DNA of 64,000 nt, taken from the IMG/VR virus record IMGVR_UViG_2818991472_000001, positions 91,260-155,259 of that record. One strand, written 5' to 3'. The notes beneath the pieces were generated by a model, which did not search any database, was not told where the DNA came from, and saw nothing but the letters and a program-made list of their open reading frames with translations. Below are positions 23,509-39,236 of the stretch, piece by piece. The first letter of the stretch is position 1. Each line of letters begins with the position of its first letter. The translations under genes were made by a program, and so were the position numbers. Source of the stretch: a virus. Lineage: Duplodnaviria > Caudoviricetes.

Positions 23509-24127
23509 TGGTTCCCCTCCGCAGGGTGCCGATCCTGGAGACGATGATGTCGGCGACCCGCTCAGGGCTGCGGTTGGTGCAGTCGATGATCAGGGTGGGG
23601 TAGCCGACCTTTTCCAGGAAGGTAGCGGCTTCCTCATAGAGGGCGGCTTCCTTACGGCTGCTTCCGGGCATCTTCTCGAAGCGGCTGTGGGTGCCCCGGG
23701 CGGTCAGCCGGGCGTGGATGACCTCGGGGTCGGCGGTGAGCACGACGGTCAGGTCCGGGGTGATGGCGTGCTGGTTGATGGCCCAGATCGTCGTGGGGTC
23801 GATGCCGTCGAGCCGCTGCAGCACCAGGGAGGAGCCCACGTAGCGGTCGCACAGGACGGTGTCGCCGCGTTCGAGGGCGGGGGTGATCTCGGTGGCGATG
23901 TGGTGGTAACGGTCGGCGGCGACGAGGCAGGCCAGCGACATGCCGGTGTAGGTCTCGGTGCCGTGCCGGGCGATCTCGCCGAGGTTGGCCCGGGAGGGTT
24001 CGGTGGTGGCGTGGACTGCCGTTCCGGCTGTGGTCAGGAGGTGGCCGACGGCGGCGACGGTGGTGGACTTGCCGACGCCGCCGGGGCCGTCGAAGGCGAC
24101 AAACAGGCCGCGCTCGGTGTCGCTCAC
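23498..24127 (-). CDS. tmk: thymidylate kinase-like protein
   Basis: FVAFDGPGGVGKST, TTEPS, AADR, VLCDRY..SS, PDL. Confidence 0.85.
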   Translation of the reverse strand: MSDTERGLFVAFDGPGGVGKSTTVAAVGHLLTTAGTAVHATTEPSRANLGEIARHGTETYTGMSLACLVAADRYHHIATEITPALERGDTVLCDRYVGSSLVLQRLDGIDPTTIWAINQHAITPDLTVVLTADPEVIHARLTARGTHSRFEKMPGSSRKEAALYEEAATFLEKVGYPTLIIDCTNRSPERVADIIVSRIGTLRRGTSGN

Positions 24128-25242
24128 GAGACGGCCACCACGGGCAGCAGGGCGCGCTTGTTCGGGGCGACGGGGCACATCTCGGCGTCGAGGGCGCCGA
24201 TGCGCTCCCCGGCGGCGACCACGGCGGCCGGGCATCCCTTGCCGCAGCCGTCTGCCATCGAGCAGCTGCCGCAGGTGGGGTTGGCTCCGACGGTGTACCG
24301 CTCGTGGAAGTTGTAGGCGTCCAGGCGGTCGGCGATGTCGGTGTCGGTGAAGATGTTGCCGACGATGAACTCGGTGTCGGCGTGCTGGGAATTCGGGGTC
24401 CGGGCGGCGAAGACGAGGTAGGGGCAGACGGTGACCTCGCCCGGGGCGAAGACGTAGATGATCGTCCCGGCCTCGCAGTTCGCGAGGGGTTTGGTGTCGT
24501 TGGGGAAGCGGATGTGGACCAGGTCGAGCTGGTCGCTGGCGAACGGGGAGGTGAGGTCGTGGATGTGCCGCATGTGGTCGTCCGACCGGGCGAGCTTGTT
24601 CTTGCTCTTGACGCCGCGCCCCATGCTGGAGAGCGGGTTCATCAGGACGTAGGAGGCGCCCTGCTCGCTGGCGAAGGCGCACAGCTGGGCGTACTCCTCG
24701 TCCTCGGCAAGGTTGTTCGGGGTGCAGAGCAGGCCCTGCAGGAGCCCGGCCTGGGCCAGCCGCTTCACCGTCTCCACGGTGGTGTAGAACGACTCGCGGT
24801 CGCCCCGGAACTTGCCGTGGGAGTCGGCGGCGAAGCCGTCCAGGCTGACGTTCACGTGGATGTCGCCCATCTTGGCCAGGGCCGTGATGTGGTCGTCCGT
24901 GATCAGGGTGGCGTTGGTGCACAGTCCCACGCCCATGCCCGCGTCGCGGAAGGCGGCGGTGACGGCGAGGAAGTCGGGGTGCAGGAACGGCTCTCCGCCG
25001 GTGAGGGTCACCCGGGTGACCCGGGCCGCCTTCAGCTGGGGGATGACCTTGGTCCGGATGTCCTCCAGCGGCATCGTCACGCCGGTCTTGAGGGCGCTGA
25101 CGAAGCAGTGGGCGCAGCCGAGGTTGCAGGGCTCGTTGATTTGGACGAGCGCCTTGCGGTAGGGCTCCACGACGGAGGTCCGGAAGTAGCAGGACACGGC
25201 CTGCTCGTCCGTCATGATCCGGCGTGCTGTCTTCTCGCTCAT
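24124..25242 (-). CDS. radical SAM/SPASM domain protein
   Basis: CNLGCAHC, TGGEP, VSLDG; SPASM CEAG...CPY...CGSC...CGKGC...C. Confidence 0.9.
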   Translation of the reverse strand: MSEKTARRIMTDEQAVSCYFRTSVVEPYRKALVQINEPCNLGCAHCFVSALKTGVTMPLEDIRTKVIPQLKAARVTRVTLTGGEPFLHPDFLAVTAAFRDAGMGVGLCTNATLITDDHITALAKMGDIHVNVSLDGFAADSHGKFRGDRESFYTTVETVKRLAQAGLLQGLLCTPNNLAEDEEYAQLCAFASEQGASYVLMNPLSSMGRGVKSKNKLARSDDHMRHIHDLTSPFASDQLDLVHIRFPNDTKPLANCEAGTIIYVFAPGEVTVCPYLVFAARTPNSQHADTEFIVGNIFTDTDIADRLDAYNFHERYTVGANPTCGSCSMADGCGKGCPAAVVAAGERIGALDAEMCPVAPNKRALLPVVAVS

Positions 25243-33504: not shown

Positions 33505-33533
33505 ACCCTATGACCCTGATACCTAGGTGTCAA
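33505..33533 (-). promoter_or_regulatory. sigma70/HrdB-type promoter with operator motif A, copy 3
   Basis: TTGACA-N17-TAGGGT containing ACCTAGGTATCAGGGT. Confidence 0.8.
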
Positions 33534-36500
33534 CGCTGTTCCTCGGAGCCGCTCCGAATGGAATCTTTGTCCACACCCTGCCTGTGGAAACAATTATGTC
33601 TGATGCCGTCCAGGAGACTTCCGGGAGTTTGGGCATGAATCGGAAGTGGTCGCCGACGTACGCGAGCGTCATATGCGGTGACCAGCCGTGTTCGCTCGGG
33701 GTTCGATAGCCGTGGCCGTTGAGGAATTTCTCCAGATCGGAGTGGAGGTGAGTTCCTCCGGGGATATCAGCCGAGCCCCAGAGAACATTCTGGCCGGGCT
33801 TGGTGAATGTCCCCACGCCTCCGATGCGGACGGTTACCGGGCGGTGTCGGCTGGCCCAGTTCCCGATCAGCTGCGGCAAGTCGGCGAGCTGCTGGCGGGT
33901 GTAGTGACCCGTCTTGCCGAGGTAGGCGAGGGTGACGTGGAGCTGGGCTGCTGGTTCTCCGCCGGGCAGGGCCAGCTGCTCGGCGATCTCCGGCGGCGGG
34001 ACCAAGGCCACCATCATGCCGTCCTCGACTTCGGCGGCGGCCTGGCGGGCGATGCGGTCGGCCTCCTCGGGGGTGGCCTGCCGGAAGAACAGGGTGGCGG
34101 TCTTCGGCCTGAGCGAGGTGAGGTCGACGGTCTCGCTGGGGCCGTACTCGTCGTGGGTCATCACGCCGTCGTAGCCGTCGGCGGCGATGGCTTCGGACAG
34201 GGCGCGGCCGGACTTGCCGTCGTAGCGCGCGGACAGCTGGTGCTTCCAGTTCGACGGGTCGCGGTAGTCGCCGCCGAAGTGCATCCGCAGCGGCCGGTGG
34301 AAGGTGATCTGGCCGCCTTCGTAGCGCGGATCGTCGGCCAGGTGGGAGGGCAGCGCGCCCTGGGTGATGTATCGGCCGTGGGGTTCGAGGTCCTGGGCGA
34401 ACTGGCTGCCGTGGTGCCCGGCGCCCTCGGTGTTGCGGAAGTAATCGAAGGTGACGGGGCGATCGTCGCCGGTGTCCTCGGTGTAGGGCTGGCGCGCGGC
34501 GGTGTGGTGCCCGGTGGTGAAGTCGTGATGGGTGAAGTCGGTGCGGAAGTCGCGGTTGTCGTCGGCCAGGTGCAGGGTCCAGGAGATCCCGGTGCGGTCG
34601 CTGGCCCGCTCGCGGCTGTGCCAGACGATCTGCGTGGCCGGGTGCGGCACAGCGGGGAGGTCCTCGGCGGCTTCGTGAGCGGCCCCGTGGGCGTAGTCGG
34701 GGTCGTCCTCCCATTCATGGGCGGCGGGAGCGACCTGCTTGAGCCGTTCGGCGCGTTCGGCCACCGGTTGGGCCGGATCGTGGACGAAGGCGTGGTCCTC
34801 GGGAGTGAGGTGGACGGCGGTCCCTGCGTACTGCTCGGCCCCGAGGTCGTTGGGGTCGTCACCGGGGTGGTGGATCTCGGGCTGGTGGATCTCGGGGCCG
34901 TGGTAGGCCCACTCGTTGATGTCGTTGCCGTCTGTGTGCACGTGCTTGGCCGGGACGGTGGCCTTCAGCACCGGCCAGTCCGGGCCGGTGCCGTCCATGG
35001 CGTGGTTGCGCGCGTACTCGCCGGAGGTGGAGACCCAGTCGCCGGGGCTGATCCGGTCGACGCCGTGGGGCGCGGCCCGGTAGATCGTCACCGGCTCGTC
35101 CGGACGGCCGTGGGCGCGGTGGAGGGTGTGGAGGGACTCCTCGTGGGGCTCGCCGTAGCTGCCGTCGGCGACGTTCTCCTCGAAGCCGGGGTGGAAACCG
35201 GAAGCTCCGTTGGTGGGGTCGTGCAGGGGCGCGCTGTCCGGGCCTGGCGCTCGGTGCTGCATACGGTAGTCGTCGTCCACAGTCCCAGCTTGCCGTACTG
35301 GGAGGACAGCGGCGGCGGCGCGGGTGGGCGCGGCCTCGGCGGTCTGGTCCTTCTTCCAGTCGGTCAGGTCCTGCAGAGGGTGGCCCGGCGCGGCGTCCAG
35401 CGCCTTCCAGACGACATTGCGTTCGTCGTACAGGCCCGTTCCGTCGGGGCCGAAGGCGTCGTGGCGGTCTTGGTGCAGCTGGTCGTACAGGGCGGCGCCT
35501 GCGGCGGCCTGGTCGTCCTCGGGGAGGTGCTCGATCTGCTGGATCTGGTCGCGGAGGTCGTCGAGGCGGTCCCAGTCCTCTTCAGGGAGGTGGTGGGCGT
35601 CGAAGTCGTCGGGAACCTGCACGGGTTCGACGGCCCAGGTGTCCGTGGTGAGGTCGTAGGCGGCGTACGGCTTCAGGGTGCGGATGTCGAAGCTGTCGGG
35701 GTTGACGTAGAAGGTCGACTCCCACGGGCCGGTGGCGTGTCCGTCCGACTGCAGGCTCCGGTCGTCGTCGTCCAGGCCAGCACGCAGCTCTTCGTTGAGA
35801 CGCTGGTCGATCTCCTGGTCCGTCAGGTGCGAGAGCGGTGGGGCGCTGCGGCGGGCCTCGTCGTAGTTGACGCCGATGAGGGTGTCGAGGTCGCCGTTGC
35901 CGTACCAGTGGCTGGCTTCGGAGCCGGTGAGGTAGACGCGGGCCCACCGGGGCCAGTCGGAGCCGTAGCGGGGCGTCCAGAAGTCGTCGAGGAGGTCGAG
36001 GAGTTGCTGGCGGATCTCTGGTCGCAGGTGGGTGCCGTCGAAGAGCCTGGGGTCGAGGCCGGATTTGCCTGGGCCGAAGAAGTGGCCGGTGGGCAGCCAG
36101 TCGTGGTGGTGCTGGTAGGGCTGGGTGTTGTCGGGGACGATGGTGTTCTGGAAGGTGAGGCGGCGGATGGCCTGGTCATAGTCGTGCAGGCCGACGTAGC
36201 CGATGTGGATGCCGCCGTCGTCGGTGGGGCGGTGGACGACGCGGTGGCCTCGGCTGGCCTTGGTGCTGTTCCAACCCTTGAGGGGCTGGGAGAGGGCGTG
36301 GGTCTGCAGCCCGTCGTCGCCTCGGCGCAGGGCTTCGACGGTGTCGGCGATGCGGCGCTGGTCCTGGCGGTCGAGCTTGGCGAGGTCCTTATGGGCGCCG
36401 GGGTGGAAGGTGACCGGGCGGAGTTCGGCTACAGGCCCAGGTCCTGCTGCACCTTCTCCCAGGGGATCGGGGTCTCCCCCGAGTTGTCCCGTTCCAGGAT

Positions 36501-37038
36501 CAGCCGCTCCAGCTCCGGGTGCAGACGTGTCGTGTCGTGGCTTGCCTCGGCCTGCAGTTCGTGACTGGTCATCATGGTCCCCCTTGGCAGCGGTGGTTGG
36601 TTCATCAGCATAGGTGCTGTCGCCTGGGGTAGTGCGGAAGAAGTCGGCGGCGGAGGCCATGGTCCTGCCCCGGGTGACGGTCTTGTCCCGGGTGTAGCCC
36701 TTCCACCATGCCTTCCCGGCGTCGGAGCGGTCGCCGTGCTCGATCCGGCTTCCGGGGTGGCGACGCTGCATCTCGTCCATGAGGGCGCTGCCGACACCGC
36801 GTCGCTGGTGGTCGGGGTGGGTCTCCAGGCGGTCGACGGCCATGGTGCCGCCTCGCCGCTTGGGCGGGTAGTAGGTGAGGTGACCCATCTCCTCGCCGGT
36901 CTCCGGGTGGAGGGCCTTGAGGCGGGTGAGGGTCGGGTACTTCGATCCGCCGGTCTCCTGGTCTTCGTGGTCGAAGAGCGGCTGGAGCTGGAGCTGGTCG
37001 GTTGCTGCGTGCCGGAAGAACTCGGCGGCCGTGGTCAT
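33523..37038 (-). CDS. multi-enzyme (polyvalent) protein: GNAT + RelE-like + nucleotidyltransferase + two ART-like domains + 2H phosphoesterase
   Basis: HPDHQRRGVG (GNAT motif A); VTFHPGAHKDLAKLD...HRVV...YVGLHDY; LTGS...GDLD; IYR...STS...EW; GYDGV...ETVDL; LHVTLAY/PHMTLAY. Confidence 0.85.
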   Translation of the reverse strand: MTTAAEFFRHAATDQLQLQPLFDHEDQETGGSKYPTLTRLKALHPETGEEMGHLTYYPPKRRGGTMAVDRLETHPDHQRRGVGSALMDEMQRRHPGSRIEHGDRSDAGKAWWKGYTRDKTVTRGRTMASAADFFRTTPGDSTYADEPTTAAKGDHDDQSRTAGRGKPRHDTSAPGAGAADPGTGQLGGDPDPLGEGAAGPGPVAELRPVTFHPGAHKDLAKLDRQDQRRIADTVEALRRGDDGLQTHALSQPLKGWNSTKASRGHRVVHRPTDDGGIHIGYVGLHDYDQAIRRLTFQNTIVPDNTQPYQHHHDWLPTGHFFGPGKSGLDPRLFDGTHLRPEIRQQLLDLLDDFWTPRYGSDWPRWARVYLTGSEASHWYGNGDLDTLIGVNYDEARRSAPPLSHLTDQEIDQRLNEELRAGLDDDDRSLQSDGHATGPWESTFYVNPDSFDIRTLKPYAAYDLTTDTWAVEPVQVPDDFDAHHLPEEDWDRLDDLRDQIQQIEHLPEDDQAAAGAALYDQLHQDRHDAFGPDGTGLYDERNVVWKALDAAPGHPLQDLTDWKKDQTAEAAPTRAAAAVLPVRQAGTVDDDYRMQHRAPGPDSAPLHDPTNGASGFHPGFEENVADGSYGEPHEESLHTLHRAHGRPDEPVTIYRAAPHGVDRISPGDWVSTSGEYARNHAMDGTGPDWPVLKATVPAKHVHTDGNDINEWAYHGPEIHQPEIHHPGDDPNDLGAEQYAGTAVHLTPEDHAFVHDPAQPVAERAERLKQVAPAAHEWEDDPDYAHGAAHEAAEDLPAVPHPATQIVWHSRERASDRTGISWTLHLADDNRDFRTDFTHHDFTTGHHTAARQPYTEDTGDDRPVTFDYFRNTEGAGHHGSQFAQDLEPHGRYITQGALPSHLADDPRYEGGQITFHRPLRMHFGGDYRDPSNWKHQLSARYDGKSGRALSEAIAADGYDGVMTHDEYGPSETVDLTSLRPKTATLFFRQATPEEADRIARQAAAEVEDGMMVALVPPPEIAEQLALPGGEPAAQLHVTLAYLGKTGHYTRQQLADLPQLIGNWASRHRPVTVRIGGVGTFTKPGQNVLWGSADIPGGTHLHSDLEKFLNGHGYRTPSEHGWSPHMTLAYVGDHFRFMPKLPEVSWTASDIIVSTGRVWTKIPFGAAPRNSVDT
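36429..36575 (-). CDS. nested out-of-frame antitoxin-like protein (48 aa)
   Basis: MMTSHELQ...LERLILERDNSGETPIPWEKVQQDLGL; own AAGGGGG RBS; GC3 bias switches to this frame; stop abuts the RelE-like domain. Confidence 0.75.
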   Translation of the reverse strand: MMTSHELQAEASHDTTRLHPELERLILERDNSGETPIPWEKVQQDLGL

Positions 37039-37080
37039 GGGCACCTCCGCCCCTTCGCGGGGCGGGGCGCGGTGGTGACA

Positions 37081-39198: not shown

Positions 39199-39216
39199 TC
39201 ACCCCTTCGTGGGGTG
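39199..39216 (-). promoter_or_regulatory. motif C upstream of the terminase
   Basis: CACCCCACGAAGGGGTGA running into the GGAGG RBS. Confidence 0.55.
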
Positions 39217-39236
39217 GGGAGGTGCCAGCGACAGGG

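Follow-up and report, generated by a model that had tools for sequence, protein, structure and literature searches.

What a chain of enzyme domains, one of them a predicted RNase toxin, does directly beside the terminase gene of a phage, and what purpose is served by a short peptide recurring at its domain boundaries, are the questions raised by one locus of the IMG/VR record IMGVR_UViG_2818991472_000001. The stretch of DNA analysed, referred to here as the window, comprises 64,000 nucleotides (positions 91,260 to 155,259 of the record) and corresponds to the last 64 kb of contig C8 (155,259 bp). On its minus strand, the gene for the large terminase subunit (TerL) is followed by an open reading frame (ORF) for a polyvalent protein, termed the effector, in which a 10-residue peptide, S-A-T-x-F-F-R-Q-A-A and termed the tag, occurs at the N-terminus and again at joints between domains. 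As judged from sequence comparison, the FFR motif of the tag is a genuine signal, conserved at the protein level at both kinds of position. The best explanation of the locus, in which we place about an even measure of confidence, is that a phage-plasmid makes this polyvalent effector late, that the tag would load it into the procapsid, and that the frame contains an embedded antitoxin-like gene. To our knowledge, neither a tag of this kind bounding modules nor an overprinted antitoxin-like gene of the kind presented below has been described previously.

The effector contains three copies of the tag and one degenerate copy (Table 1). In chromosomal DNA translated in six frames the strict motif is encountered ~10 times per Mb, which corresponds to ~0.006 copies expected in the effector ORF compared with the 3 seen. 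A relaxed pattern applied to the 90 proteins of the family matched 74 times, versus 5.0 in shuffled sequences, and these matches comprise 37 N-terminal copies, always at residues 5-14, and 37 internal copies, located at joints. The recurrence of an FFR motif at domain starts, pointed out in the earlier note, is borne out by these counts. Many of the 89 homologues begin with M-T-D-I-S-A-T-x-F-F-R-Q-A-A and display further copies inside the chain, the largest number (7 in one protein) being found in P0042. The N-terminal tag heads at least five different domains, and one module, together with its tag, is N-terminal in one and internal in the other of the homologues P0004 and P0055. Since the codons of the tag vary synonymously between copies, it is the peptide and not the DNA that is conserved. 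In the AlphaFold model, tag 3 displays a pLDDT below 50 and no secondary structure, which points to a flexible linear motif. The sequence DYFR at residue 868 was considered as a fourth tag and rejected, as it constitutes a conserved internal motif in the core of domain D6.

Of the seven domains in the effector chain, five could be identified confidently, and the predicted assignment of the chain as a genuine phage-type polyvalent effector, a known class with a typical domain set, is supported. All six domains proposed in the earlier note were recovered, the two ART-like ones with lower certainty, while a seventh, the His-rich domain D5, had been overlooked. Searches of the whole protein against Pfam, NCBIfam and PDB sequences gave no match of any kind for residues 135-1000. 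The GNAT domain scores above the Pfam gathering threshold (26.4 bits over residues 47-95, cut-off 20.7) and retains acetyl-CoA motif A (HQRRGVGSALM). For the RelE/YoeB-like domain, profile A1, comprising 33 homologous segments, matched solely RelE/YoeB-type toxin chains in the PDB (13 of 13 matches, one of them deposited under the RelB name), including YoeB (best E-value, 5e-4), RelK (1e-3) and RelE (0.3); the C-terminal cluster R74, H77, H93 and Y95 of this domain is invariant or nearly so. The pol-beta-type nucleotidyltransferase (NTase) domain returned zero Pfam or PDB sequence matches, profile search included, and its putative identification comes from a G-S...N-G-D-x-D signature that is invariant in 28 homologues, together with the presence of PF01909 in the nearest Atlas clusters (score 0.95).

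The 2H phosphoesterase at the C-terminus was confirmed by Pfam (4e-13), by both HxTx motifs (LHVTLAY and PHMTLAY) and by the structural similarity of its model to the D. radiodurans CPDase (PDB code 5h7f; Z-score of 14.3, Foldseek 1.6e-7) and to the phosphoesterase 4qak (Z-score of 12.5), which Foldseek ranked among E. coli LigT chains. The similarity to Acb1 that the earlier note had brought up is weak in comparison (PDB code 7t27; Z-score of 7.0, rank 19, behind LigT, CPDase, AKAP18, Usb1 and VP3), and the anti-CBASS analogy is thus a possibility rather than the nearest kinship of this domain.

Domains D4 to D6 were modelled by AlphaFold in two segments, residues 575-860 (D4 and D5; pLDDT of 84.5) and residues 855-1173 (D6 and 2H; pLDDT of 82.1). 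The specific structural matches of D4 all belong to the ART superfamily (CNFy domain 4, Tpt1/KptA, TreX, Arr and scabin), although with Z-scores of just 3.2-4.8, and the same holds for nearly all matches of D6 (SAIP, diphtheria toxin and relatives, NatT, MbcT and PARPs; Z-scores of 2.7-4.7). D4 displays conserved H, Y-R and E residues in the homologue alignment. Its profile produced zero Pfam, NCBIfam or PDB sequence matches, Foldseek found no significant PDB match for D4 plus D5, and an Atlas shape search returned solely unnamed viral clusters. In BFVD, the matches of D4 are to phage proteins with LPD and MuF annotations, and D4-type domains are located among the structural genes of phages Skog and E3. 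D5 (HLSPEDHAFVHD ... HPPTHVVLHGHE-like) recurs in more than 20 homologues, and its top structural matches (pertussis toxin S1, Z-score of 4.3) were not separable from noise.

Table 1. Features of the effector locus, with positions in the window.
Feature	Position	Strand	Evidence
Bipartite virion-gene ("late") promoter-like motif, CTGTC-N22-AAGGGGTG	39200..39234	(-)	directly before TerL, single copy in window
Large terminase subunit (TerL), 700 aa	37081..39183	(-)	phrog_2; 36 nt upstream of effector ORF
Polyvalent effector ORF, 1173 codons from GTG	33523..37044	(-)	open frame; GC3 0.87
Tag 1, TAAEFFRHAA, aa 5-14, N-terminal	37003..37032	(-)	same register as MTDISATxFFRQAA in 37 homologues
GNAT acetyltransferase module, aa 15-128	36661..37002	(-)	Pfam PF00583
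Tag 2, SAADFFRTTP, aa 131-140, joint after GNAT	36625..36654	(-)	orthologous joints of P0012 and P0018 tagged, different sequence thereafter
Dual-coding stretch, main-frame aa 141-205, linker in main frame	36430..36624	(-)	codon-position GC shift
+1-frame gene, 48 aa (MMTSHELQ...PWEKVQQDLGL), antitoxin-like	36429..36575	(-)	AAGGGGG ribosome-binding site 3 nt before ATG
RelE/YoeB-like RNase-toxin domain, aa 206-300	36145..36429	(-)	profile A1 vs PDB; PHROG RelE-like 0.036
Pol-beta-type nucleotidyltransferase (NTase) domain, aa 310-565	35350..36117	(-)	G-S...N-G-D-x-D; Atlas PF01909
Degenerate tag, AAVLPVRQAG, aa 578-587, before D4	35284..35313	(-)	P0005/P0008 position: SLTSFFREAA / SLTDYFRETG
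D4, ART-like fold, aa 588-722	34879..35283	(-)	phrog_2579 1.4e-34 ("ParB C-terminal domain"); AlphaFold model
D5, conserved His-rich domain, aa 735-855	34480..34842	(-)	alignment A5
D6, second ART-like fold, aa 860-980	34105..34467	(-)	alignment A4; contains internal PVTFxYxRNTE motif
Tag 3, TATLFFRQAT, aa 982-991, linker before 2H	34072..34101	(-)	same joint SATAFFQ / TATAFFQ in P0003 and P0055
2H phosphoesterase, LigT/CPDase-like, aa 1008-1165	33550..34023	(-)	Pfam PF13563 4e-13

The reading frame itself appears sound. It is a single open frame whose third-position GC content (GC3) of 0.87 is as expected for a coding frame in 70% GC DNA, and its sequence agrees with zero mismatches or indels with sequencing runs X1 and X2, from two independent studies, wherever these cover it, which includes part of the dual-coding stretch described below (run X2 is without coverage at ~36749-36945). 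Three 1-nt deletions seen in contigs of the low-depth run X3 were dismissed as assembly errors, being absent from run X2 of the same sample. The ATG at 37038, the start given in the earlier note and located behind an AAGGGG-type ribosome site, is the likely start codon. The gap between TerL and the effector (37045-37080 (-)) contains a 7-bp G+C hairpin, CCGCCCC-GCGAA-GGGGCGG, which overlaps the ribosome-binding site of the effector and is not followed by a T-run; this hairpin might tune translational coupling.

Between the GNAT and RelE-like domains the effector ORF displays a second layer of coding. Over residues 141-205 the GC3 of the main frame goes down to 0.38-0.53 and GC at codon position 1 goes up to 0.85-0.90, which identifies the +1 frame as the one under codon-usage selection. 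The small gene found in this frame has its stop codon where the RelE domain begins. Its peptide is kept at the protein level in loci L014 and L035 (...PEL..L.ER.....PWE....LGL), a second type of +1-frame peptide is conserved in L012, L023, L020 and L002, and a profile of the peptide retrieved nine small predicted proteins of 47-63 residues from public data. In the metagenome contig L039 the small gene is free-standing and directly precedes a 675-residue protein in which a RelE domain (64% identical) comes first and an NTase domain last, to judge by gene order an ordinary antitoxin-toxin layout. In the effector a GNAT module has therefore been joined on in front, its reading frame running on across the small gene. 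A sequencing error and a programmed frameshift were both considered for the dual-coding stretch, and the former was rejected, as the runs of two studies agree and at least six relatives share the overlap. It is from its position alone that the +1-frame gene is predicted to be antitoxin-like; it is a clear example of an overlapping gene concealed within an ORF already annotated and would show how the producer could tolerate toxic cargo.

The linkage to the terminase claimed in the earlier note extends well beyond this genome, as the effector, 36 nt from TerL here, adjoins TerL in every relative examined, and TerL is followed by one or more tagged ORFs in 12 of 12 loci. Three of the relatives, genomes or plasmids, have two ORFs after TerL, each led by a tag, which in the window are fused into one. 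The motif located before TerL provides an indication of when the effector is made. In its general form, CTGTY-N21-23-AAGRGGYG, it occurs in 17 copies on C8, all on the coding strand, of which 16 lie in the virion region (C8:16293-60565) and the 17th before TerL, compared with 1 copy in the other 9.9 Mb. It is a candidate late-promoter or ribosome-binding signal of the phage lineage. No promoter-like or terminator-like site was found on the coding strand from the start of TerL to the end of the effector ORF, which, together with the late-type motif before TerL, makes it likely that the effector is co-transcribed with TerL under virion-gene control, late in the lytic cycle.

The replicon to which the window belongs has a GC content of 69.6%, compared with ~73% for the chromosome, and is collinear in its ORF region with pRLB1-9.1, a circular 154-kb plasmid of Streptomyces sp. 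RLB1-9 whose PGAP annotation is almost entirely "hypothetical". Many homologues of the effector ORF are likewise found on contigs of 150-157 kb. C8 codes for a portal (4.7e-146), a major head protein of the HK97 type (9e-103) and a head-maturation protease that is part of a larger fusion protein. Tail sheath, baseplate wedge and tail proteins, endolysins and replication genes are present as well, and this combination of a complete virion module with replication genes marks C8, by gene content, as a ~155-kb myovirus-like phage-plasmid of a Streptomyces-type bacterium. The protease fusion comprises 821 residues on C8 (C8:38836-41301 (-)) and 1158 residues in pRLB1-9.1 (L041:3589-7065), where it is annotated as ParB family; the head module may therefore have a multi-domain cargo protein of its own. 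TerL shares 33% identity with its counterparts in Rhodococcus phage E3 and in the mycobacteriophages of cluster C (E 8e-88). Its matches to the terminases of cluster C mycobacteriophages and Phrappuccino are split in two pieces, and faint intein matches were seen in the large gene that precedes the antitoxin-toxin pair of L039 (L039:1-2671). Inteins may be frequent in this terminase family.

The element is sporadic, being present in 1 of 167 genomes of the GTDB genus (the terminase is absent from the other 166). A single-protein scan of species representatives yielded 3 loci, and most of the distribution data were drawn from the protein collection and IMG/VR. In IMG/VR, 21 stretches contained a DNA pattern for A-T-x-F-F-R-Q, 8 of which belong to this family and adjoin TerL without exception (8 of 8), while the other 13, in unrelated contexts, look like chance. 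More distant homologues (P0027, P0029, P0044, P0048, P0052 and P0060-P0087) begin with other short conserved leaders, such as MLEYFTAAL, M..TLTELFTKTAA and MGLGRRESSHDTALS, and each sub-lineage may have its own N-terminal label.

In the mechanism that we propose, the TerL-effector transcript is probably made late, from the virion-gene-type promoter. Within the lineage, each independently mobile module and every post-TerL polypeptide starts with the tag, carried in a flexible segment. Since the tag bounds modules, it is at the tag that these are exchanged, joined and separated, leading to relatives with one or two ORFs and varied domain order. As a loading signal, the tag would direct the effector into the procapsid, in the manner of the capsid-targeting sequence (CTS) of the T4 internal proteins and Alt, and the internal copies may in addition allow the chain to be cut or docked module by module. 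The embedded +1-frame gene would keep translation alive in the producing cell, and, once injected, the enzymes would target host proteins, RNA or nucleotides for modification. Both virion loading and cleavage of the effector are put forward here as hypotheses.

A clue to what might read the tag is provided by the portal. Its N-terminal extension (L008:15640-15724 (-), the N-terminus of the C8 portal) is variable but contains ...MS[RK][LM]FRR[AS]S in all close relatives, and more distant relatives read ...NPFRRRTASA or ...GSFRRTS. This xFRR(T)AS motif is very close to the latter half of tags of the FFRRTAAS kind, and a reader common to the portal extension and the effector tags, either a scaffold or core protein or the head protease, is the explanation favoured by this resemblance, whether the reader docks or cuts. 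Of the matches on the element to the half-motif [FY]R[QRKTHE][ATS][AGST], 5 of 7 belong to three proteins, namely the effector, the portal and the protease fusion. A radical-SAM gene in the window (24124-25242 (-)) begins MTDEQAVSCYFRTS, which is weakly like the tag MTDISATSFFRQA and may be so by chance. A bolder version of the proposal, which we hold tentatively and consider possible but clearly not probable, describes the tag as a dedicated address label of a lineage of ~150-kb Streptomyces phage-plasmids, half shared with the portal, that loads a reshuffled magazine of enzymes and releases them module by module, with RelE held harmless by the overprinted antitoxin; the tag would then be an actinobacterial counterpart of the T4 CTS of independent origin.

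Several results weigh against loading by the tag and against the part given to the embedded gene. The search of other late proteins for the motif, suggested in the earlier note, was negative, the full tag being absent from all other ORFs of C8, including those for the capsid, scaffold-like and protease proteins. The half-motif, which was defined post hoc, is only ~2-fold enriched on the element (7 matches compared with 3.4 +/- 1.9 expected), and two of its sites, those of the protease protein, sit in conserved domain cores. Module boundaries are not uniformly marked, as the junction between the RelE and NTase domains contains no tag, the copy before D4 is degenerate (LPVR) and the RelE-led protein of L039 starts untagged. 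The +1-frame peptide matched no curated antitoxin family in Pfam, NCBIfam or the PDB, and the ART assignments of D4 and D6 rest on low Z-scores. Finally, no Pfam or PHROG family for a peptidase, MuF or portal-fusion domain was detected in P0001 or among the Pfam families of the 89 homologues. With the MuF/Dar-type anchor domain absent, the anchoring principle, if there is one, would be a linear peptide.

Most tag copies end in [R/K/H]-x-A-[A/S/G], and in T4 and giant phages the prohead protease acts on packaged proteins at a single short consensus. The alternative that survives best, although we regard it as unlikely, is built on these two points and holds that the tag has no role other than to be cut by the head-maturation protease (behind F-F-R, or else at R-x-A-A); the chain would be loaded by other means and cut into single enzymes in the head, with an 11-residue N-terminal peptide removed. 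The position of the tag in a disordered linker and the FRR(T)AS sequence of the portal extension fit this explanation as well. Proteases of this type normally also cut the capsid, scaffold-like and protease proteins, however, and on C8 these are devoid of an FFR-type site and not enriched in [KRH]xA[AST]. Some copies have Q, T, H or K where the Arg of the tag would stand, of which Q and T speak against such a site, and a cut site has no need of the fixed register at residues 5-14. From the picture of a virion-packaged polyprotein cut at FFR motifs that the earlier note had drawn, the effector class, the terminase-linked late context and the reality of the motif are therefore retained, whereas a simple prohead-protease site is disfavoured by the untagged head proteins and the Arg substitutions.

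The internal copies could alternatively reflect history rather than function. They would then be fossils of former gene starts, the leader of the two or three post-TerL ORFs, which might act at the level of translation initiation, having been carried in by fusion and the shared DNA favouring recombination, an explanation that we place behind the cleavage site and consider improbable. It accounts for the two tag-led ORFs of the relatives where this genome has one, for the in-frame ATG that tag 2 retains (RTMASAADFFR) and for breakpoints between different modules that fall at tags. It also fits the greater degeneracy of the internal copies, in which F at position 5 is present in 22 of 37, compared with 36 of 37 N-terminal tags, and one of which has decayed to LPVR. 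Yet within linkers that are otherwise unconserved, the internal tags retain F at position 6 in 37 of 37 copies and R in 28 of 37, P0042 has kept as many as 7 copies, and the synonymous variation of the codons means that the DNA itself is not conserved. The function of the N-terminal tag is, moreover, left unexplained. Least probable of all, and very doubtful in our view, is an unpackaged effector that serves as a hub for anti-defence, host takeover or plasmid addiction within the cell that produces it or in a lysogen, with RelE and its antitoxin stabilising the phage-plasmid and the tag serving as a turnover or cytoplasmic-assembly signal, since the extrachromosomal nature of the replicon (the whole 155-kb contig, with circular pRLB1-9.1 as a relative), the embedded toxin-antitoxin-like pair and the lack of a MuF or portal anchor domain, which agree with it, are set against an effector co-oriented and almost contiguous with TerL behind a virion-type motif, a domain repertoire of phage-type polyvalent proteins (PMC5512222) and D4 homologues in virion gene blocks and MuF fusions.

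Tag-directed loading of the effector, if correct, would matter in several respects. Polyvalent proteins of phages have been recognised by sequence analysis, and apart from T4, P1 and N4 there have been few tests of how their enzymes enter the capsid and are separated. This family offers a short, defined peptide, present at every mobile module and every polypeptide next to TerL, in a host genus that can be cultivated. Should the tag work as proposed, it could be used to direct proteins of choice into the heads of actinophages. With its GNAT, NTase, ART, LigT-like 2H and RelE domains, the effector also supplies candidate activities for early host takeover and anti-defence in Streptomyces phages.

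Each component of the locus has counterparts in known systems. The 2H domain shares its fold and two HxT/Sx motifs with the LigT/ThpR 2',3'-cyclic phosphodiesterases and Acb1, and in the effector it forms the C-terminal part of a polyvalent protein. The pairing of the small gene with the RelE-like domain resembles the YefM-YoeB and RelBE operons in that a small upstream gene has its stop abutting the toxin start, the toxin domain matches YoeB/RelE profiles and L039 presents a normal two-gene pair. This contrasts with those operons in that the antitoxin-like gene is overprinted by a 1173-residue frame, the toxin is one domain of a longer chain and the small protein belongs to no curated antitoxin family. 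MuF-toxin fusions and the Dar proteins of P1 deliver effector enzymes with the DNA, and D4-type domains occur in phage proteins of the MuF/LPD kind, whereas the effector is devoid of a MuF or Dar anchor.

The class to which the effector is assigned, the phage polyvalent proteins, was predicted to be packaged, with embedded peptidases proposed for processing (Iyer, Burroughs, Anand, de Souza, Aravind 2017; PMC5512222). The effector shares with this class a chain of unrelated domains (seven here, 2-15 in the class), a phage of the portal-terminase type, a location next to late genes, mosaicism between relatives and the common repertoire of ART, GNAT, pol-beta NTase, 2H and RelE-type (BECR-fold) RNase domains. 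It differs in having no MPTase or other peptidase, MuF, DarA-N or portal fusion, a feature that is frequent in the class but not obligatory. It also differs in that its modules are headed by a 10-residue tag, "FFR" appearing 0 times in PMC5512222, and in that one toxin domain is accompanied by an overprinted antitoxin-like gene.

The T-even internal proteins, which are injected and act against the host, are diverse, evolve fast and share only a conserved CTS, which loads them into the scaffolding core (PMC3012670). Unlike the CTS, the effector tag also recurs inside long chains, and the capsid, scaffold-like and protease proteins of C8 present no matching consensus. In T4 the CTS ends in a gp21 site that is used throughout the head. 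The two peptides are not known to be related in sequence. By analogy, the T4 CTS appears to be the nearest precedent for the tag, given that in IPI-III and Alt, as in the effector family, a short N-terminal peptide is the sole feature shared by diverse proteins, an ART is among the cargo and a contractile tail is combined with a head protease.

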